Positions 7,340 through 41,910 of a stretch of DNA of 64,000 bases are shown here, piece after piece. The stretch lies in the IMG/VR virus record IMGVR_UViG_3300043015_002491, positions 1-64,000 of that record. One strand, written 5' to 3'. The notes below the pieces were generated by a model. That model worked only from the letters and a program-made list of their open reading frames with translations, had not been told where the DNA came from and made no database searches. The translations under genes and the position numbers were made by a program. The stretch is from a virus. Each line of letters opens with the position of its first letter. Within the stretch, counting starts at the first letter, position 1.

Positions 7340-7924
7340 TTATTTTTCGAGTTTATTTTTCAACTCTTGTAAAGCACTCAAATCACCAAGCGCAAATGTT
7401 GCTCTACCTTCAGCTTCTTTACGTTTTTTATTAACAATCTTTTTAACTTCTTCATCTTCAATACCATCAGCTCTACTAATGAAATTCTCTTTGTTAATAC
7501 CTTTAAGTAACCACCCAATGTGTTTGTCACCCTTCATAAACCTAGTTAATACCCAATCATAAAATACAACATACGTTTGAGAAGACATATACGTTGTTGT
7601 ATTTGCACCTTGAACCGCTAAGTGTTTACCATCAATTAATTTCTTAATAGGTGCTTCAGCTTCAACATTTGGGTTAAACATGTTGTGCATGTATTGAAAG
7701 AAATCATTCTTGAATTCTTCACTTTGAACACCCTCTAAAATATTATTAACTGAAACTAATTTATCATTAGTTATAACACACTTAAATTTACCCTTCGGTT
7801 TTACGAATACTTTCTCAACCTTATCGTTTGGGAAGTATGCTCTTACTAGGTGGTTCAAGAAATTCCTAGCTTTTTTATTTTCATAAATTTCGTCTAATTT
7901 TTTAAATACGTCTTCTCTATTCAT
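7340..7924 (-). CDS. hypothetical protein
   Basis: 194 aa ORF in operon orientation. Confidence 0.6.
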   Translation of the reverse strand: MNREDVFKKLDEIYENKKARNFLNHLVRAYFPNDKVEKVFVKPKGKFKCVITNDKLVSVNNILEGVQSEEFKNDFFQYMHNMFNPNVEAEAPIKKLIDGKHLAVQGANTTTYMSSQTYVVFYDWVLTRFMKGDKHIGWLLKGINKENFISRADGIEDEEVKKIVNKKRKEAEGRATFALGDLSALQELKNKLEK

Positions 7925-9013: not shown

Positions 9014-9574
9014 CTATTTCCATTTTTTTTCGTATGTTGTGAATGTTAATTGATATTTATCTTCTTTAATTGAGTATTCATCAATCATATTATATTCTCC
9101 CCTATCAAATTCTGGGAAATAGGTATCCCCCTCAATAAGACCATCAGAATCATAACCAACCCAAGTCACATAAATCCTATTTGGTTCGTAGTCATTCATT
9201 ACTTGGTTATATAATTTACCACCACCAATAACAAATATTTCCTTTTCCTTAAATGTATTAGCAATCTTTAAGGCTGATTCAAATGATTCACACACCCAAA
9301 CATTGTTTTTAGCTCGTATAGTATAACCAGGGTCACTAGATAAAACAATGTTTATTCTATTGGGTAATGGTTTACCTATTGATTCATAGGTCTTTCTACC
9401 CATAATAACAATATTGTCTTTTGTCCTAGCTTTGAAGTACTTTAAATCTGTTTTAAGACTAGTACCCCATGGCATATCACCATCTTTACCAATAACTCTA
9501 GTTTCAACAGCACAGGCTACTATAACATTAAGTATTACCTTTTTACCTTGTGAAAAATTCGTACCCATAATCAA
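9014..9574 (-). CDS. folA: dihydrofolate reductase
   Basis: IGKDGDMPW, IMGRKTYESIGKPLPNRINIV, IGGG and GDTYFP. Confidence 0.95.
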   Translation of the reverse strand: MIMGTNFSQGKKVILNVIVACAVETRVIGKDGDMPWGTSLKTDLKYFKARTKDNIVIMGRKTYESIGKPLPNRINIVLSSDPGYTIRAKNNVWVCESFESALKIANTFKEKEIFVIGGGKLYNQVMNDYEPNRIYVTWVGYDSDGLIEGDTYFPEFDRGEYNMIDEYSIKEDKYQLTFTTYEKKWK

Positions 9575-14730: not shown

Positions 14731-14743
14731 AAAAACCAGTATG

Positions 14744-14824
14744 AGCGGGTAGTCAGAATCGAACTGACATCGCTGCATTGGAAGTGCAGTATAATACGCT
14801 TTCGCTCCGTTATACGATACCCGC
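14744..14824 (-). tRNA. tRNA-Gly(TCC) with expanded D-loop
   Basis: loop CTTCCAA; D-loop contains extra AGCGAAAGCG. Confidence 0.85.
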
Positions 14825-22820: not shown

Positions 22821-23144
22821 ATGGGATTTATTTATTTAATTACTGATTGGTCTTCGAACCCGACACGTTATAAGGTGGGTATCACTAAGAATAATGTTGA
22901 AAGTAGATTAAAGCAGTTGCAGACAGGTTCAAGTGGTGAATTAGTGTTACTTAAAACATACGAATCAGAACACTATCGTAAAATAGAAGGTATTCTCCAT
23001 CGTGGTTATAAAACCTACTCTACCGATGGTGGTAAAGAATGGTTTGAATTACCAGATGAAACAGCCCTAAACTTTTTAAATGAATGTGAGCAGATTGATA
23101 ATAATATCAAAATGCTCAAGGATAGTGGTAACCCTTTTATTTAA
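22821..23144 (+). CDS. GIY-YIG / T5orf172-like nuclease
   Basis: GFIYLI...YKVGIT...RLKQLQTG...EWF. Confidence 0.85.
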   Translation: MGFIYLITDWSSNPTRYKVGITKNNVESRLKQLQTGSSGELVLLKTYESEHYRKIEGILHRGYKTYSTDGGKEWFELPDETALNFLNECEQIDNNIKMLKDSGNPFI

Positions 23145-24351
23145 TAACTACCCCTTTTTGTTTTTCATAAACATAAAACTTCTTTCTAATTTCAATAAGA
23201 AGTTTATTTACCAAACCACTTTCAACACTCTTAGGTAAATCAGATTCATCAAAGATTGTATCCATGTTCTGGATTTCTTTATCCGCCATTTCAATTAGTG
23301 ATTCTAAATCAACTTCTCCACGTCTGATTGAAAGTAATTCTTGAGCATCTGGTCTACGGATAATAATACCCTTACCTTCACCAATCTCCTTAGCCATTCT
23401 GATAAGTCTCATGCAATGCATCATATTCTTACCATCGATTTGTTGACCATGTTTTTGCGTATCAACATATCTTGCTTCGTTTCTATTTTCAACCCATTCT
23501 TGGTATTCCTTATAATCCTTACAGTGTTGTGAATAACCATCCTTATTATACGTAAAGATAGCAATTGATTTTTCCTCCTTGGGGATACTTGACAATCTCA
23601 ATTGATTGGATATTCCAGCATTGTTGGATTCCCCAACCTTAACAAGGCCCTTATACCCAAGACCGAAAGTAGTACCTTCTTCATTCCCAAGGAATCTTTT
23701 AACTCTATTCTTAGACTCTTCATCAAAGTCAGATGAGAAACAATTAGCAGCTACACCATCATAATAAAGAGCATACATATCTCTAGCATTGGGAATATTA
23801 ACCACACCGCAGAATTTTTGTGCATCAGAAGGGTAACCCTCTCTTTCAAACCAATCTTTAATTGGAGTTGACTTCTCACCTTCAATTACATAACAGAAGT
23901 CAAGTAATTCTTTTCTAGTTACTTTTTCCTTTTCCCAGTTTTGTTTCTTGTTAAGACCCTTCGCCTTCTTGATTTGTTGTCTAGCATATCCACCAAATGA
24001 GTTTTTACACCCCTTTGTGATAAACTTGTTCTTCTCGTTGATAATAATATCAAAAAGTGGATTCTTAGAGACAATACAATCTTCTGGTGAATTAAGCAAT
24101 TCAAGTACCGTTGGGTTGTTGCTTTCAAGTAGTTCAAGGAAACGCCTTACTTCCCAACCAACATAATCTTTATTAATATTTATTTGTTCAACATACCCAG
24201 TACCTAGAATAAAGTCTTCTGGAAGGATATATACAAACTTCTTATCAATATCACTTGTCGGTGTTTGAGTTCCATAGGCTTGTGACCCTACAATGGTTTC
24301 AAAAAGGATGAGACCATTCTCTACTAAAAATTCGTGTGTAATCTGTTTCAT
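23137..24351 (-). CDS. Pol-beta superfamily nucleotidyltransferase (RlaP/NrdC.11-like)
   Basis: GSQAYGTQTPTSDIDKK, NPTVLELL and KNMMHCMRL. Confidence 0.82.
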   Translation of the reverse strand: MKQITHEFLVENGLILFETIVGSQAYGTQTPTSDIDKKFVYILPEDFILGTGYVEQININKDYVGWEVRRFLELLESNNPTVLELLNSPEDCIVSKNPLFDIIINEKNKFITKGCKNSFGGYARQQIKKAKGLNKKQNWEKEKVTRKELLDFCYVIEGEKSTPIKDWFEREGYPSDAQKFCGVVNIPNARDMYALYYDGVAANCFSSDFDEESKNRVKRFLGNEEGTTFGLGYKGLVKVGESNNAGISNQLRLSSIPKEEKSIAIFTYNKDGYSQHCKDYKEYQEWVENRNEARYVDTQKHGQQIDGKNMMHCMRLIRMAKEIGEGKGIIIRRPDAQELLSIRRGEVDLESLIEMADKEIQNMDTIFDESDLPKSVESGLVNKLLIEIRKKFYVYEKQKGVVIK

Positions 24352-34970: not shown

Positions 34971-36789
34971 ACTAAAAATTCTTTAAATTTATTTTTCAAT
35001 TCTACCTCTGTTAAGTAAGTTTCAAGTTTTACCTTAGTTTCGTAATTTTCATTTTCACGCTCTAAAATATCATATGATACAATATCTTGTGGGAACTTAT
35101 GGCGTAATTCAATAAAGTGTTTAACACTTAACTCATAACCCTTAATTTCTTTACCTTCTTGATTAGTTCTATAATAAATAATACTATTTAAATAAATTGA
35201 CCTAATGGCATCTAACTCTTCATCTAACATAATATCTAATATCTCATCTATGGACATATTTAACCCTAAATATCTTAGAACCATATTTTTAATTTCATTA
35301 GGGATTGTTGAGAATGCTAGTGTTTCAATATCATATATTTTATGTAATCCAGCATCTTCCAATTCAAATCTTAATTCACTAGAATCTATGGTAACCCCTA
35401 TGAAGTTATCATCATCATAAAAAATATGGAAATCAAATAAGTCTAACGATGGTAAATAACCATCATCAGACAAAGGAATGTGTGTTACTATAATATTCTT
35501 AACGTTTATCATGTAACAAATATAATAAAAAAAATGAAACCTACAATGAAAAAATTAAATTATTTTCTTTTTTTTCTAGATTCTTCTAATAATTCTTCAG
35601 CTGTATCACTTAAATGTTTAGGCATAACACTAATTAAATCCATCTTCTCATCATCATTAGCATTCTTAAAAACACTTAACATGATGTCATCACTAGGTAA
35701 TTCATTAAAAATATCCGCAAGTTCTATTGGTTCCCCATTATCAGTTTCAAATCTATTACTAGTTTGATAAAAATGTACCTTCTCACCATTAGATAATTTC
35801 ATCTTTTTAAAAGATTCTTTCTTTTCTTTAGCTCCAACATTTTTTTCTTTAGACCATCTTCGTAACCCATCAATTGTTATAGGTCTTTTTTCAGTACCGT
35901 AATCACCACTATTAACAAATTCAATTAACTTTTCATATGGAATAACATAATCGTATTGACCTTTAACTATATGTTTCCAAAATAAAGTTGTGATGACATT
36001 ATCCTTAACCACTAACACTAGTAAATGACCTGGTAGGTCATTATTTGGTTTTATTGGTTCTTTAGAGTCATATATAATAATACCCAAGTCTCTACCAAAA
36101 GAATCACCAAATTCTAAGCTTTCAATAAAATCAATCCTTTCATCAATTATTTTTTTACCTTCATCACCTATTTGGTCTAGTAAAGCAGTAATCCTTTCTG
36201 GATACCTTTGTTTAACAAAATGCTTTATATCCTTTATCGCTTCTAATAATCTTTGTCTAATAAATTCTTTCATTACTCACCTTTTAATATTTGTTTAAAC
36301 TTTCTAAGTTGTTCTTTTATTACGTTTTTAGCTTTAAAACTAGGACCCTTTTTGTTTATCGGTACTTTCACAGTTTTGGGTGACTTATCACCACCATTAA
36401 CATTAATAGTATATTTTCTATTATCCTTAAAGGTAATTTCGTTAAATTCTTTATCCAACTGATTTATTTCCATCTTAAGCTTAGGACCATCAGCTGAGAT
36501 AATTCTATGTATTTGAACATCCCCTAGATATTCACCTTGTATAATATGATTTAACTCGGCTTCTTTTCTTTTTTGTTTACCCGCAGAAACCCAGTCATTT
36601 CTAATACCAATAACCTCACAATCACCACCTACAGTAGCACTCATAAGGTCATCATTGTACTGTCCACCAGACTTTCCACATTCACATTTTCTCCATTTGG
36701 TGTGAATTAGTCTAACTACGTCATCACAATTTTTACAGATAATTAACTTCATATTATATAAATATATTGAAACACGCAAAAAGATGAAG

Positions 36790-36879
36790 CGGAAGACAAG
36801 GGAATTGAACCCTCGGACCGCTCAAGGCGGCCAACGCATTAGCAGTGCGCCCCGACTAACCAACATTCGGCTATCTTCC
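36790..36879 (-). tRNA. tRNA-Ser(GCT)
   Basis: CGCA-CTGCTAA-TGCG; long variable arm; G73. Confidence 0.88.
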
Positions 36880-36884
36880 AAGTA

Positions 36885-36951
36885 CAGGATGGTTTTTTTA
36901 CGTAATCAAATTAGAAGTTTGGTCGTTAAAAATATTTGCTGAACCCATCCT
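36885..36951 (-). ncRNA. CAGCAA-family small RNA with Arg(TCT) anticodon stem-loop
   Basis: AGGATGG-GTTCAGCAA...CAAA-CTTCTAA-TTTG...CCATCCTG. Confidence 0.7.
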
Positions 36952-36955
36952 TTAG

Positions 36956-37028
36956 TACCCCTACAGGGATTCGAACCCCGATTCTCGGCTTAGAAGGCCG
37001 ATGTCCTATCCAATTGAACGATAGAGGC
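36956..37028 (-). tRNA. tRNA-Arg(TCT)
   Basis: TCGGC-CTTCTAA-GCCGA. Confidence 0.9.
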
Positions 37029-37133
37029 ATTTTGGTGAGAGGCTTTGGGTTAGATAAACCTCAATATTACATGAGAGACCCCCTAGAATGCATCACCATT
37101 GTGTGAGAACGTCTAAACGTTCCCGACTTTTAG

Positions 37134-37208
37134 TACACCTAGAAAGAATCGAACTTTCAATCTCTCAGTTCGTAGCCGAGTGCTTTAAATCCGTTAAGCT
37201 ATAGGTGT
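37134..37208 (-). tRNA. tRNA-Arg(ACG)
   Basis: CTCGG-CTACGAA-CTGAG. Confidence 0.88.
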
Positions 37209-37216
37209 ATATTAAG

Positions 37217-37286
37217 TACCGACTGTGAGGTTCGAACTCACTTAACCGTCCATATGAAGGACTGTTCTTTTCCACTAAGTGTCGGC
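37217..37286 (-). tRNA. short tRNA-Met(CAT)-like with reduced D arm
   Basis: GTCC-TTCATAT-GGAC; T arm present. Confidence 0.6.
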
Positions 37287-37317
37287 ATGTCGCTACTATT
37301 CGACCTATCAATATTTG

Positions 37318-37389
37318 CTCCTTGGGGGAATTTCGAAATCCCGACCTATCGCTTAACAGGCGATTGCTCTACCTCTGAGCTACCAAGGA
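37318..37389 (-). tRNA. tRNA-Asn(GTT)
   Basis: ATCGC-CTGTTAA-GCGAT. Confidence 0.9.
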
Positions 37390-37446
37390 ATAATTGTTTA
37401 TAGTTGGCCAAAACTAGTAAATAAATTAACTTTTGGCTGATTATAG

Positions 37447-37519
37447 TGGGCCCACTGAGACTCGAACTCAGAACAACTGATTATGAGTCAGCCGTTTTAA
37501 CCACTTAAACTACAGGCCC
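37447..37519 (-). tRNA. tRNA-Ile2/Met(CAT)
   Basis: CTGA-CTCATAA-TCAG; GGGCCTG acceptor resembles Ile2. Confidence 0.82.
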
Positions 37520-37523
37520 TTTG

Positions 37524-37613
37524 TACTGGTGGTGAGATTCGAACTCACGTTTGGTAACAACCTCAAGAACCGCTACGTTTCTCCAAGATATAAGCTTGGG
37601 ACGCTACACCAGC
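37524..37613 (-). ncRNA. tRNA-like RNA with Ile(TAT) anticodon hairpin displaced into the D-arm position
   Basis: acceptor GCTGGTG/CACCAGT; T arm GTGAG-TTCGAAT-CTCAC; CCAAG-CTTATAT-CTTGG inside the GCGT/ACGT stem. Confidence 0.55.
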
Positions 37614-37692
37614 ATTTGTAGAGTAGGTGGGGTATTCTCCCACAATAAAGGGTCATAGTCCAGCGGTTTGTAGTTTGAACCTACTATTCTAG

Positions 37693-37778
37693 TTGGTAGG
37701 GTGGGACTCGAACCCACATTGTGCTTTCGCACCCAGTGTATCAGACTGGTCCCTGTAAACCAATTCGGGTACCTACCA
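37693..37778 (-). tRNA. tRNA-Ile(GAT) with long variable arm
   Basis: CCAGT-CTGATAC-ACTGG; variable arm GTGC-GAAA-GCAC. Confidence 0.8.
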
Positions 37779-37785
37779 ATATTAA

Positions 37786-37875
37786 TGGCGGAGAGAGTGG
37801 GACTCGAACCCACACACCTCTAGGGCCTACGGTTTTCAAGACCGTTGCAGTTAGACCTACTCTGCTTACCTCTCC
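37786..37875 (-). tRNA. tRNA-Ser(TGA)
   Basis: ACGGT-CTTGAAA-ACCGT; CCA encoded. Confidence 0.9.
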
Positions 37876-37884
37876 GAATAAAGT

Positions 37885-37969
37885 ACCCCATTGTAGGATT
37901 CGAACCTACGGTCCCCTAAAGGGACACCCGTTACACACGGGTCGCATTAAGCCACTCTGCCAAATGGGT
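37885..37969 (-). tRNA. Ser-like tRNA body with anticodon loop TGTGTAA
   Basis: GGCAGAGTGGCTTAATGCG D arm and long variable arm; ACCCG-TGTGTAA-CGGGT (G33). Confidence 0.6.
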
Positions 37970-37976
37970 CACTTTG

Positions 37977-38049
37977 CACTGCGTTAGAGAATCGAACTCT
38001 ATCCATCCGAGGTTTTGGAGACCTGGCGCATACCATTATGCTACGCAGT
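37977..38049 (-). tRNA. tRNA-Trp(CCA)
   Basis: AGGT-CTCCAAA-ACCT. Confidence 0.85.
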
Positions 38050-38127
38050 ATGTGTTTCAATACGTCAAAGAACATATCGGTTTAAAAGCCGATATTATCA
38101 ATTATCTGTTATTAATCAGATAACCTT

Positions 38128-38203
38128 TGGGGTGCACGAGGAATTTCGAAATCCCGACCTTCCGAATCACAGTCGGATGCTCTGCCTCTGAGCTACGTAC
38201 ACC
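38128..38203 (-). tRNA. tRNA-His(GTG)
   Basis: TCCGA-CTGTGAT-TCGGA; G-1, C73 and CCA encoded. Confidence 0.92.
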
Positions 38204-38388
38204 ATATTTAAAGAACTACGAAGAATACAACCTTTCCCCTTTCTTTTTTTATTTTTATTTCACCATTATAGCCTCCGTCTTCAGCTTTCTTTTTATACTT
38301 GTCGTAGATGGTATCAAAGTCTTTCTTAACTTCTTTTTCTTTTTCTACCCCAAGTTTTCTAACTCTCTCTTCCATAATAATCGGACAT

Positions 38389-38422
38389 AAAAAAAGCCCG
38401 ACCAGTTTCCGAGTCGAGCTTT
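38389..38422 (-). terminator. attenuator terminator of tRNA operon 4
   Basis: AAAGCTCGACTCGG-AAA-CTGGTCGGGC-T7; 5' arm complementary to GAGTCGAGT (38471-38479). Confidence 0.85.
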
Positions 38423-38455
38423 ATATTATTTTAGTTTTTTTATTTACATCACAAC

Positions 38456-38539
38456 TTAAATAATGGACATACTCGACTCATTTAGAGAATTACGTCTCCA
38501 ATTACTAATCGAATTTCTATGTATGTTCATTGTTCTCAT
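38456..38539 (-). CDS. leader peptide 4 (MRTMNIHRNSISNWRRNSLNESSMSII)
   Basis: 27 aa ORF; codons 4-18 all M/N/I/H/R/S/W. Confidence 0.85.
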   Translation of the reverse strand: MRTMNIHRNSISNWRRNSLNESSMSII

Positions 38540-38574
38540 TGTTATAAAATTTTCTTTGTTTTTAAATATATATG

Positions 38575-38606
38575 CAAATATATGATAAAAGTTTCAATTT
38601 GGCAAG
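38575..38606 (-). promoter_or_regulatory. sigma-A promoter, tRNA operon 4
   Basis: CTTGCC...GAAACTTT...TATATTTG. Confidence 0.8.
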
Positions 38607-38632
38607 TATTTTTATAAAAAAATTTTAAAAAA

Positions 38633-39223
38633 TTATTTTAAACTATAAAATCTTGTTGGAACTTCTTCCTTTGAAAGTTTGAAACTTAAGTTTTTACATA
38701 ACTTTTCAAAAGTTTCAGCAACTTCTTTACCTTGTTGTGACATTAGTGGATTATGATTAGTTTTAAATGACTTTGAGTACGTATATTTTATAGCATCTCC
38801 TTCATCAACACCATCAAAGATACAGGTTGTATCGTTATATTGAAACATGATTTGTCCAGATTCATATAATTCACTTGATGAATTAACTTTAGGGTCCCAA
38901 TATTTACCTCGACCTTGTGTTGAAGGTGTATCTTTGTCTACGAATCTAACTATAACATCTGAAAAAGCTGGCTTCACTTCAAATTCAACATTTCCTAATG
39001 CTTGGTCTCTGTATTTTTTAAACTTATTTACAAAATTACTTATTTGTGGGTTTCTTAACAATTCTTCATATTGCCTTTTCCAATGTTTGAATCTATTTTC
39101 ATCTATGTTGTTCACAGTTACTTCATCATATGACTCATTTATTAATCCCTTTGAAGCAAGGTATCTTTGTTCGGCTAACATGTTAGCCTTTTGTATGTTT
39201 AATTTCTTATCAAATTTTCTCAT
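38633..39223 (-). CDS. hypothetical protein, MRKFDKK-leader family
   Basis: shared N-terminus MRKFDKKLNIQKANMLAEQRYL. Confidence 0.7.
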   Translation of the reverse strand: MRKFDKKLNIQKANMLAEQRYLASKGLINESYDEVTVNNIDENRFKHWKRQYEELLRNPQISNFVNKFKKYRDQALGNVEFEVKPAFSDVIVRFVDKDTPSTQGRGKYWDPKVNSSSELYESGQIMFQYNDTTCIFDGVDEGDAIKYTYSKSFKTNHNPLMSQQGKEVAETFEKLCKNLSFKLSKEEVPTRFYSLK

Positions 39224-39237
39224 AATAAATCTTTATT

Positions 39238-39669
39238 TTACAAATCTTCTCTAGAAATTATTTTATATTCATCTGGGTTTTGACCAATGTCAGATAAGAA
39301 TTGCACCATAGCTTCCTTATCATTGGAGTATATACCTTTACCAGCTTTAATCATTGGGTCGTCTGATGCACCATAACCAACTGGGTATGGTGTGGTTAGA
39401 TTTACGTGTTTGAAAATATCACCACTCTTAAATAGGTTATATAATATAACCATATTGTCATTTGCTACACCAAAGTCTCTTGAAGAACTAACGTATTTGG
39501 ATATTTCTCGAATTAAATCATAAAAATTGTTTATATCTTTTAAATCATATTTAGCGTCACTCATTTCATTAATAACTTCTTCATTTTTTGATTCCTTACT
39601 TTCAAGGTATCTTTGTTCAGCTAACAAATTAGCTTTTTGGATATTATATTTCTTATCAAATTTTCTCAT
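39238..39669 (-). CDS. hypothetical protein, MRKFDKK-leader family
   Basis: MRKFDKKYNIQKANLLAEQRYL. Confidence 0.7.
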   Translation of the reverse strand: MRKFDKKYNIQKANLLAEQRYLESKESKNEEVINEMSDAKYDLKDINNFYDLIREISKYVSSSRDFGVANDNMVILYNLFKSGDIFKHVNLTTPYPVGYGASDDPMIKAGKGIYSNDKEAMVQFLSDIGQNPDEYKIISREDL

Positions 39670-39810: not shown

Positions 39811-40674
39811 TTATCCTATATATATTTTATTACCGACTGTATATAGACTTCCAAATGTTTCACCATCAACATCTACAAATGTCTCTCCTTCTGATTTATA
39901 ATCATCAACACCTGGTCCATCTTTTACTTCTTTAACATAAAGAGTCCCACCTAAATTAACTGCAAAGAATCTACTCATATAATTTTTATCTGGTCCCATT
40001 GGTACTGGTGTTATCGGTGCTTTATATACAACACCTTCTTCATATTTAGGTATTTCCTCACCAATTTCAATTGCTTCACCTTCTAGTTGTTGGAACACGT
40101 CTTTTGTACGCATTCTCCAGTAAGGTGCAACCTTTGGGTTGTAGATTATTTCAGATTCTGGTGAACCTGGACTCTTAGAAGCTGTAGAAACCCTAACATC
40201 AGAACATTTAACTTTAGCTATAACATCCTTATTAGCGCCCTTATAAATCTCATAACCAGTTTTAACTCTATTTGTTAATAAACAATTAGTCATCTCAATA
40301 TCGAAAGACCATGGGTGGAAATTATTTCTTACACCTCCCTTTTCTACTTTATCAACTAAGTCACTTGGGTTGAAGTCTAATTTATCATCACCTAATAAAC
40401 CTGTTTTACCATTAGGTTCAACCTTCCATGTCATGAAAATACCTTTTCCAGTAATTGGGTCTCCAGTTTTAGCTAAGTTAAATCTAACCATGAATTGATT
40501 AGCTTTTGTAGTTGGGATATTTGGTACTCTGTCGTCTGTCGTTGGTTGTTCTACCTCTGGTTTTGACACCATACCTATTTCCTCTTCCTTTATTAAACCC
40601 TTTGAAGCAAGGTATCTTTGTTCGGCTAACATGTTAGCTTTTTGTATATTTAATTTCTTATCAAATCTTCTCAT
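39811..40674 (-). CDS. hypothetical protein, MRKFDKK-leader family
   Basis: MRRFDKKLNIQKANMLAEQRYL (start set at the second Met). Confidence 0.7.
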   Translation of the reverse strand: MRRFDKKLNIQKANMLAEQRYLASKGLIKEEEIGMVSKPEVEQPTTDDRVPNIPTTKANQFMVRFNLAKTGDPITGKGIFMTWKVEPNGKTGLLGDDKLDFNPSDLVDKVEKGGVRNNFHPWSFDIEMTNCLLTNRVKTGYEIYKGANKDVIAKVKCSDVRVSTASKSPGSPESEIIYNPKVAPYWRMRTKDVFQQLEGEAIEIGEEIPKYEEGVVYKAPITPVPMGPDKNYMSRFFAVNLGGTLYVKEVKDGPGVDDYKSEGETFVDVDGETFGSLYTVGNKIYIG

Positions 40675-40749
40675 TGGGTTTCTTTTAATTATAAATATCA
40701 CTAATAAAGAAAAAAAACTGTTCCTAAAACTCCCATAACTTCTTAATTA

Positions 40750-41910
40750 TTATAATAAATTTTTAAAATTTTCAATTTCCATTTTCTCAATAGCCTTACC
40801 CATTTCTGGTCCAGGCTTAACTCCTAACTCTCGTTGTACTTGGTCACCAGTTACACTCAATTCAAATTTAACAAAACTAGTGATTAACTCACCATTTAAC
40901 CTTGCAAGCATACCAAACTTAAGTATTTGAGTATCTTCAATACCAGACTTACTTTGTAACTTCTTAAACTTGTAAACTTGTTCTGGGTTTACGAATTGTT
41001 GTAAAGCAATTAGAAATGTAATAACCTTAACTTCTGATGAAGAATAAGTAAGCTTATTTAACTCCTTTGCAATAACATTAGGGTCATTATCCTTAAGTGT
41101 ATTAGCAATCACAATGATTGGGTCCTTATCGTTAACCCTATCTGTTTTACTAATCTTAAGACCTGGGAAAATTGATTCCCATAATTTGTAGTCATCAATA
41201 AGACTTAAGAAATGTTTAACATTCTTAGCCGTTTTAATCCCCTTTAATAACTCATCTCTGATTCTTTCTGGCGAAACACCTTCAAGACTGTTATCCTTCT
41301 TTAAAGCAGCATCTACAGCTGGGTCAAGCCCACTTCCGAATCTACCAGCGAATCTAATAGCTCTAAGTATTCTAAGTCTATCTTCACCGAATCTATCTTC
41401 AGCAGCACCAACAGTTCTAACAACACCATTCTTCAAGTCATCAATACCACCAACAAGGTCAACAACCTCACCAGTATCTATATCGTAAAATAATGCGTTA
41501 ATAGTTAAATCTCTTCTCTTAACATCGGTTTCAATATCTGTAAATCTAACAGCATCTGGTCTCCTACCACCAGATAGGTCTTCTCTAAATGTAGCAATTT
41601 CGTATTCATCTGAATCTGTGAATACATTGATTACACCAAAAGCTTTACCAGTTGGTAGTGTTTTAAACCCAGCATCAGCCATCATATCTTCAACCTTGTC
41701 TGGTACAGCATCAGTTGCGAGGTCATAATCTTTTGGTGTCTTTCCTAGTAATGCATCTCTAACAGCACCACCAACAACAAATAACTTATGTCCGTTTTTA
41801 ACGAAAACATCTTTAATTTGTCTAATATCATCTGGGATAGGCATGTTCATTTGCACCCTTTCTTCTCTTATGATATCTTCTCTAAGTATTTGTTTGATTT
41901 TATCTTTCAT
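40750..41910 (-). CDS. cca: CCA tRNA nucleotidyltransferase
   Basis: VGGAVRD, DYDLAT, RRDLTINA and EDRLRILRAIRFA. Confidence 0.92.
   Translation of the reverse strand: MKDKIKQILREDIIREERVQMNMPIPDDIRQIKDVFVKNGHKLFVVGGAVRDALLGKTPKDYDLATDAVPDKVEDMMADAGFKTLPTGKAFGVINVFTDSDEYEIATFREDLSGGRRPDAVRFTDIETDVKRRDLTINALFYDIDTGEVVDLVGGIDDLKNGVVRTVGAAEDRFGEDRLRILRAIRFAGRFGSGLDPAVDAALKKDNSLEGVSPERIRDELLKGIKTAKNVKHFLSLIDDYKLWESIFPGLKISKTDRVNDKDPIIVIANTLKDNDPNVIAKELNKLTYSSSEVKVITFLIALQQFVNPEQVYKFKKLQSKSGIEDTQILKFGMLARLNGELITSFVKFELSVTGDQVQRELGVKPGPEMGKAIEKMEIENFKNLL

Follow-up and report, generated by a model that had tools for sequence, protein, structure and literature searches.

The element described here is a short leader in front of a transfer RNA (tRNA) array in a 64,000-nucleotide (nt) stretch of DNA, hereafter the window, which is the first part of the 122.5-kb viral record IMGVR_UViG_3300043015_002491; all coordinates are those of the whole window unless a contig is named. 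CheckV gives the record a completeness of 35%, and the G+C content of the window is 32%. ARAGORN called 31 tRNA genes and one transfer-messenger RNA (tmRNA) in the window, every one of them on the minus strand. Unit 4 consists of the leader and the last large tRNA array of the window, and its parts follow one another on the minus strand in the order promoter, 27-codon open reading frame (ORF), terminator, 55-amino-acid ORF and tRNA array. The putative promoter (38573..38607, ACTTG..TTGAAACTTT..TATATTTGCA) has the TTG / TAnnTTTG arrangement characteristic of Bacteroidota promoters, and a consensus scan placed it as TTGCCA-17-TATATT at 38605-38577, with the box TATATTTG. The promoter pattern occurs exactly four times in the 122.5-kb record, each time preceding one of four leaders, and of the 17 matches to TANNTTTGYA in the window, 16 are on the coding strand. 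Judging by the promoter type alone, the phage would have a host in the Bacteroidota. The leader ORF (38456..38539, 27 codons plus stop) encodes the peptide MRTMNIHRNSISNWRRNSLNESSMSII, and its codons 2-18 are the putative control codons. Within the ORF, duplex energy and covariation with the terminator mark an antiterminator segment, region 2 (GAGTCGAGT, 38471..38479, codons 21-23), and region 1 (38493..38527, codons 5-11, approximate bounds) pairs with region 2 and its flank in the minimum-energy fold of the full-length RNA. An A-rich spacer of 33 nt separates the ORF from an intrinsic terminator (38389..38422), which comprises a hairpin (38422..38393) with the 5′ arm GCTCGACTC (38419-38411) and the 3′ arm at 38404-38396, followed by seven T residues (38395-38389), with a local folding energy of −15.7 kcal/mol. 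The first gene past the terminator is the small ORF of 55 amino acids (38208..38375), and the tRNA array (36789..38202) encodes His(GTG), Trp(CCA), Thr(TGT), Ser(TGA), Ile(GAT), a tRNA with the anticodon CAT, Asn(GTT), Arg(ACG), Arg(TCT) and Ser(GCT), as called by ARAGORN. A scan of the window for the TANNTTTGYA box on the minus strand found none between the terminator and the array.

The codons of the leader correspond closely to the anticodons of this array. Codons 4-18 read ATG AAC ATA CAT AGA AAT TCG ATT AGT AAT TGG AGA CGT AAT TCT, exactly as given in the first-pass annotation, which had matched them to tRNAs encoded downstream. All the tRNAs it listed were found by ARAGORN; it had omitted Thr(TGT), which is sampled by ACA at codon 3. 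Under standard wobble rules as we set them, codons 2-18 form an unbroken run of 17 codons that the array can decode, using all 10 of its anticodon species. In the whole leader ORF, 23 of 26 codons are decodable, the unmatched ones being CTA, GAG and TCC (codons 19, 21 and 25), and the other two frames contain 9 and 7 decodable codons. The permutation test of leader codons against array anticodons proposed in the first-pass annotation came out in favor of the match. None of 50,000 dinucleotide shuffles of leader 4 reached 23 decodable codons or a run of 17, and 10 anticodon species were reached in 300 of them. Among 200,000 windows of 26 codons drawn from the long ORFs of the record, none reached 10 species or a run of 17, and the best contained 19 decodable codons (the count threshold tested there was 24). 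The run of 17 is unique to leader 4 among the 458 short ATG-initiated ORFs of the 122.5-kb record. At the amino-acid level, 24 of the 26 residues after the start Met fall within the set carried by the array, the highest value among the 458 short ORFs and one attained by none of the 200,000 windows from long ORFs. The codon match far exceeds chance.

The first-pass annotation had also claimed that a segment of the leader pairs with the terminator arm, and this was borne out. The segment GAGTCGAGT (38479-38471) and the arm segment GCUCGACUC (38419-38411) form 9 base pairs with a duplex energy of −14.6 kcal/mol, and a duplex as strong was obtained in 0 of 2000 dinucleotide shuffles of the upstream stretch.

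To look beyond this record, IMG/VR was scanned for exact matches to the first seven codons of the leader with codon 4 left free, which returned 36 matches in 35 loci. Since six codons were fixed by the scan, relatives differing there were missed, and the conservation of those codons is uninformative. Thirty-one of the matches are homologous leaders of 31-35 codons, mostly MRTINIHMISISNWRRNSH..., and the remaining 5 are unrelated. The homologous leaders sit on uncultivated phage contigs of 6 to 362 kb; each has a T-run 47-56 nt past its stop codon, and behind 27 of them lies a tRNA array on the same strand. In 3 of the 4 remaining cases, less than 800 nt of sequence is available downstream. The 27 arrays are drawn mostly from His, Trp, Ser, Ile, Met, Asn, Arg(ACG), Arg(TCT) and Ser(GCT), sometimes with Thr or Arg(CCT), and in 26 of the 27 units all array amino acids are present among leader residues 2-19. 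Together with the window copy, the 32 copies comprise 26 distinct sequences, all of which have a hairpin of −13.5 to −19.1 kcal/mol and at least six T residues. The window copy belongs to this family, denoted MRT(I/N)NIH..SISNWRRNS: it has the control codons, an in-frame Met, a hairpin with a T-run and the same type of array. At 27 amino acids it is the shortest member, and its helix version, GAGTCGAGT with GCTCGACTC, is its own. The presence of 31 copies on many uncultivated phage contigs, found by one narrow scan, indicates that the design is not a curiosity of one genome.

Across the family the control codons are nearly invariant, and the 3′ part of the ORF, the spacer and the terminator differ widely. 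The helix between region 2 and the terminator 5′ arm is nevertheless retained in different versions: relatives of the window copy carry GGTCAAGGT with GCCTTGACC, GTCGGGT with ACCCGAC, GAGACG with CGTCTC, TGAGTC with GACTCA, and AGTCGG with CCGACT. Covariation was tested by transferring the nine pairs of the window to a plain MAFFT alignment (A1, not structure-fitted) of the 26 distinct sequences. Pairing cells amounted to 79.4%, compared with 67.4% in shuffled alignments (0 of 500 as high), and the covariation score was 0.370, compared with 0.209 (0 of 500). Both sides had changed in 7 of the 9 pairs, and sliding the partner by 1-3 columns lowered pairing to 25-53%. Part of the unpaired remainder is, in our reading, a one-column MAFFT offset in the GCCTT-GACC group. 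When region 2 and arm partners were permuted among the 26 sequences, 0 of 20,000 permutations gave duplexes as good as the cognate ones, and with one representative for each of 18 arm cores, 0 of 50,000 permutations matched the cognate duplex energies. Because the sequences are related, these counts are not independent events, and a sounder measure is the number of distinct helix versions, which is six or more.

Since the terminator wins at most ribosome positions in full-length folding, a point weighed below, the competition between the two helices was analyzed in transcripts ended just before the terminator 3′ arm, with a 30-nt ribosome footprint masked. For the window, the 5′ arm is predicted to be paired to region 2 when the A site is on codons 1-16 and to be freed when it is on codons 17-27. 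Over the 26 distinct sequences, the mean predicted probability of pairing between the 5′ arm and the ORF was 0.74 with the A site on codons 4-15 and 0.22 with it on codons 21-26, and it was higher at the earlier codons in 26 of 26 sequences. The predicted switch, at codons 17-19, coincides with the end of the conserved control run.

The other three copies of the promoter are each followed on the minus strand by a short ORF, a hairpin with seven T residues and a tRNA array, constituting sister units 1-3. Leader 1 (MNLTVTTYQPKQYTQGGKPS...) precedes an array of Pro, Pro, Gln, Tyr, Tyr, Thr, a Gly(TCC)-like element and Lys; leader 2 (MRTFNNIFDFAFEAFAEADF...) precedes Phe, Glu, Glu, Asp, Ala and Ser; and leader 3 (MITRNNILLVLNLCLLVV...) precedes Cys, Val, Leu, Met, Val, Leu and Leu, in addition to leader 4 (MRTMNIHRNSISNWRRNSLNESSMSII) with its array from His to Ser(GCT). 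A leader-by-array matrix of amino acids peaked on the diagonal, with 19/34, 19/29, 13/25 and 24/26 for leaders 1-4. All four leaders contain an in-ORF segment complementary to their own terminator arm, ending 67-75 nt after the ATG, and this complementarity was significant in all four units, with 33, 9, 2 and 0 of 2000 shuffles as strong for leaders 1-4, respectively. Units 1-3 have no equivalent of the 55-amino-acid ORF, and their first tRNA begins 10-65 nt past the T tract.

Leaders 2-4 have the similar starts MRTFNNI, MITRNNI and MRTMNI that the first-pass annotation had pointed out. A scan for the M..T.NNI start returned 80 loci, 12 of which have a short ORF with a T-run, 10 of these with matching arrays; the other 68 were chance matches inside genes and were dropped. 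In other phages, leaders of the type M[KR]T.NNIF(D/E).., rich in F, D, A and E, precede Phe/Glu/Asp/Ala arrays in 8 cases, and leaders of the type M.T.NNILVL.., rich in L, V and C, precede Cys/Val/Leu arrays in 2 cases. The shared promoter, present in four copies only, together with NNI-start leaders recurring in other phages, fits the proposal of the first-pass annotation that duplication was followed by codon retuning, and supports a common origin of leaders 2-4 in which the control codons were probably rewritten to fit each array.

The promoter, short ORF, in-ORF antiterminator, terminator and downstream genes that the attenuator reading calls for are thus all present and placed as it requires. 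We consider it likely that leader 4 is a ribosome-mediated (leader-peptide) transcription attenuator gating a phage tRNA operon. The anatomy, codon match, covariation and conservation are observed; we infer translation of the leader, ribosome stalling on it, the direction of the switch, the regulation itself and its biological trigger. Transcription would start at the promoter common to the four units, and a ribosome would translate the 27-codon leader. If the aminoacyl-tRNA of any of the ten array species were scarce, the ribosome would stall within codons 2-16, leaving region 2 free to pair with the emerging terminator 5′ arm. No terminator would then form, and RNA polymerase would read into the small ORF and the tRNA array, including the tRNAs whose shortage had stalled the ribosome. 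When decoding is fast, the ribosome on codons 17-27 would cover region 2, the hairpin with its seven T residues would form and transcription would stop. The unit would act as a multivalent OR gate that reports demand for exactly its own tRNAs and exerts negative feedback on tRNA supply. The likely trigger would be that host tRNAs run short in the course of infection or through anticodon nucleases of the host. We also lean, if with less assurance, toward a broader proposal, namely that the four units are paralogous, isoacceptor-resolved tRNA demand gauges of giant Bacteroidota-type phages: four separately switched operons, jointly covering all 20 amino acids, that would detect and repair selective loss of host tRNAs, for instance by decay upon infection or by anticodon nucleases, and would have been born by leader duplication and codon rewriting.

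Several observations weigh against attenuation by leader translation. When full-length RNA was folded at equilibrium with the ribosome masked, the terminator was favored at most ribosome positions, so that the choice must be kinetic; the terminator also wins at equilibrium in classical attenuators. In cut transcripts the antiterminator formed without any ribosome too, and in most relatives it formed even with a ribosome at the stop codon, the latter because their ORFs extend 8-10 codons beyond region 2. Termination would therefore need a well-timed ribosome on codons 17-27; alternatively, a ribosome at the stop codon might sterically hinder the long-range helix as region 3 emerges. Neither a conserved helix between regions 1 and 2 nor a pause site or hairpin synchronizing ribosome and polymerase was found among the family sequences, and the pairing of regions 1 and 2 seen in the window is not kept in relatives, in which region 1 is nearly invariant and region 2 variable. 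Leader 4 contains one His and one Trp codon, and single codons give weak sensitivity in classical attenuators. In the 24 main-type sequences the nine replacement residues at positions 4, 8, 9, 11 and 12 are all I, M, N, R or S, a set-conserving pattern that speaks for translation but is weaker than it looks since most members of the set have ANN codons, one mutation apart. The control codons of these sequences do not vary at many of their third positions, which could mean a constraint at the RNA level. A variant leader (MRTNNIHISNRNQWYQPCF..., 35 codons; L035 11083-11103 on the minus strand, also L042, L060 and L061) samples 19 different amino acids; at its four loci a tRNA-Ile lies behind it, the arrays are shorter and tRNAs are scattered among protein genes, and no clear match of the leader to these dispersed tRNAs was found. 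The variant may be a general rather than a set-specific gauge. Metatranscriptome run X14 contained three identical contigs, at 37083-37233, 37267-37417 and 38785-39054 (tRNA-Arg, tRNA-Asn and the upstream gene); the leader was not covered. As such contigs show neither RNA ends nor levels, and as the library may contain DNA, the run counts neither for nor against attenuation.

The alternative that survives best retains translation-dependent attenuation and assigns it a general signal, amino-acid starvation or overall translation speed as in a stringent-type response, with the 55-amino-acid protein possibly being the main product. Ribosome stalling is blind to whether a tRNA is uncharged or absent, as is established for the trp and his attenuators, a small ORF stands directly past the terminator in 22 of the 26 distinct units, and the 19 amino acids of the variant leader are compatible with such a signal. 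The sensed codons are, however, split among the four leaders exactly as the tRNA genes are split among the four arrays, which a general signal does not require, and the other three units, lacking such an ORF, start with a tRNA 10-65 nt past the T tract. We regard this alternative as improbable.

Slightly lower still we rate an RNA-level switch that operates without translation, such as a protein- or tRNA-binding riboregulator of a T-box-like kind, choosing between the same two helices. It would account for the near-complete nucleotide conservation of codons 1-18, third positions included, and the alternative between antiterminator and terminator exists irrespective of translation. The family sequences, however, bear signs of translation. 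All 26 distinct sequences have a conserved ATG past region 2, at codon 23-26, and its frame is kept despite length changes upstream of it. At Ser position 12, AGT occurs in 11 and TCG in 10 of the 24 main-type sequences, a change of all three bases that keeps the amino acid and switches the isoacceptor, and both of these Ser isoacceptors occur in the arrays. All 24 main-type sequences retain AGA with CGT or CGC directly after it, so that both Arg isoacceptors are always sampled. Furthermore, only one frame of leader 4 matches its array, the sister leaders obey the same codon logic with different sequences, and no Rfam family, T-box included, reached threshold.

The weakest alternative, an ordinary small gene or functional peptide ending at its own terminator, with independently transcribed tRNAs and a codon match due to composition, could draw on the strong conservation of the first 18 peptide residues and on a strong terminator that forms at equilibrium, yet we find it scarcely credible: composition-matched shuffles never reached the codon match, four paralogous leaders each match their own array and the arrangement recurs in other phages, a peptide function leaves the covariation of the variable ORF part with the terminator arm unexplained, and no promoter box lies between terminator and array.

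The proposed attenuator resembles those of enterobacteria (trpL, hisL, leuL, pheL, and the multivalent ones of ilvGMEDA, sensing Ile/Leu/Val, and thr, sensing Thr/Ile) in having a short leader rich in sensed codons, an intrinsic terminator and an antiterminator that uses the terminator 5′ arm; in leader 4, as there, the position of the ribosome would decide between them. As in ilvGMEDA and thr, one leader would sense several amino acids. Leader 4 differs in being phage-encoded, in having region 2 inside the ORF with no conserved helix between regions 1 and 2, and in covering 8 amino acids and 10 isoacceptors with mostly one to five codons each, where the enterobacterial leaders have runs of one or few. 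Its putative output also differs: tRNA genes take the place of biosynthetic enzymes, so that the loop would close on tRNA supply. In the pheST attenuator of E. coli, a leader peptide controls an aminoacyl-tRNA synthetase operon; this likewise is leader-peptide attenuation of a component of the translation apparatus, although one amino acid is sensed, protein genes are regulated and the operon is chromosomal. T-box riboswitches bind uncharged tRNA directly, without translation. They would share with leader 4 the reading of a specific tRNA state and the choice between terminator and antiterminator, whereas the frame-specific codon logic of leader 4 points to the ribosome. A search of the whole window with all 4227 Rfam families gave no leader family at the gathering threshold and no row for the T-box covariance model. 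The best weak rows were Thr_leader RF00506 (22.8 bits, threshold 55, E = 0.22) and Trp_leader RF00513 (20.4 bits, threshold 41, E = 0.5), and they reflect a leader-like shape, not membership.

Textbook attenuation concerns amino-acid and synthetase genes, and its output restores charging. Here a known mechanism would be put to a new use, in a phage and on tRNA genes. A full-text literature search, whose coverage left out about 1.7 million PMC articles, subscription journals and supplements, brought up no description of tRNA genes under leader-peptide attenuation. The closest published parallel found is the long trn array of Anabaena PCC 7120, which is reported to be accessory, silent by default, turned on when translation is impaired and controlled by the repressor TrcR (PMC10272220). 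In another article on this array, the terms "attenuat", "leader peptide" and "terminator" are absent (PMC8421152). Both systems would switch on an accessory tRNA array under impaired translation, the Anabaena array being cellular and not phage-encoded. If our reading is correct, the output is tRNA itself, with direct feedback of decoding speed on tRNA supply, and a virus would be monitoring the translation apparatus of its host codon by codon. As demand gauges, the units would spare the phage the cost of constitutive tRNA synthesis. This bears on the purpose of tRNA arrays in large phages and on the timing of their use. The leaders, compact and modular as they are, could also find use as natural sensors of how fast particular codons are decoded.

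The 55-amino-acid ORF is a real, conserved gene. Its homologues occupy the same place in the 22 related units mentioned above, and a 23rd is cut by the end of its locus. In one DNA run, a strain variant differs at 11 sites within 38228-38271, 8 of them, by our arithmetic, at third codon positions, and shows no change in the leader, terminator or promoter. AlphaFold2 modeled the protein with a predicted local distance difference test (pLDDT) score of 90.8 as one strand, two helices and two strands; searches assigned it to no Pfam or PHROG family, and no fold in the PDB matched it at E ≤ 0.001.

Other searches for relatives of unit 4 were less productive. Comparison of the family leader with 50,697 records of isolated phages by tblastn gave two chance rows only (E = 2), and blastn of the region against isolated phages matched tRNA genes and nothing else, in a set from which near-identical records may be missing. 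Scanning IMG/VR for the promoter pattern returned 8 loci, one with tRNAs and none with the attenuator architecture; these were dropped as generic promoters. Relatives identified through a 168-amino-acid protein encoded downstream of the array were found at 3 loci, none with a tRNA array at the equivalent place. Their records contain 2, 3 and 10 tRNA matches; one has a tRNA directly behind the promoter with no leader, and another carries a homologous variant leader. A search of chromosomal contigs returned a look-alike on two Flavobacterium chromosomes (L172 4625-4645, minus strand; L173 6304-6324, plus strand), a 36-codon ORF starting MRTQNIH with a hairpin and seven T residues, followed by a second short ORF with its own terminator and then by an Arg-Lys-Pro-Tyr-Leu tRNA array, 0.9 kb from terminator to array. 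Tests on the look-alike were not significant, with pairing as strong in 336 of 2000 shuffles and amino-acid diversity as high in 6734 of 100,000 windows, and among 301 searched genomes of the genus, the query genome was the only one with its pattern. It could be a cellular or phage-derived relative. The other four matches of the chromosomal-contig search were unrelated ORFs.

One contig of the leader family (L038, minus strand) carries two family leaders 1.5 kb apart (7796-7816 and 9356-9376) with different helix versions, each preceding its own His/Trp tRNAs, which looks like a recent duplication of the whole unit.

Relaxed settings or inspection by eye added tRNA-like elements to those called in the array of unit 4, one with a TAT anticodon loop (Ile-TAT-like, 37523-37619, minus strand) and one with a CAT loop (within 37209-37316, minus strand). 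The Gly(TCC)-like element of the array behind leader 1 (14743-14824, minus strand) is a third such element missed by ARAGORN under default settings. Several called tRNAs exceed the usual length of their type, at 97 nt for Pro, 91 for Met, 88 for Thr and 87 for Ile, and fold with an additional arm. Genes for RNA maintenance lie near the arrays on the minus strand, namely an RlaP-family nucleotidyltransferase (23137-24351), a CCA-adding enzyme (40750-41910) and the phage tmRNA (52701-53070); the tmRNA of a related contig (L033) encodes almost the same tag peptide. Immediately upstream of the leader-4 promoter, three ORFs on the minus strand (38633-39223, 39238-39669 and 39811-40701) form a paralogous family that shares the N-terminus M..RKFDKK.NIQKAN.LAEQRYL and diverges afterwards.

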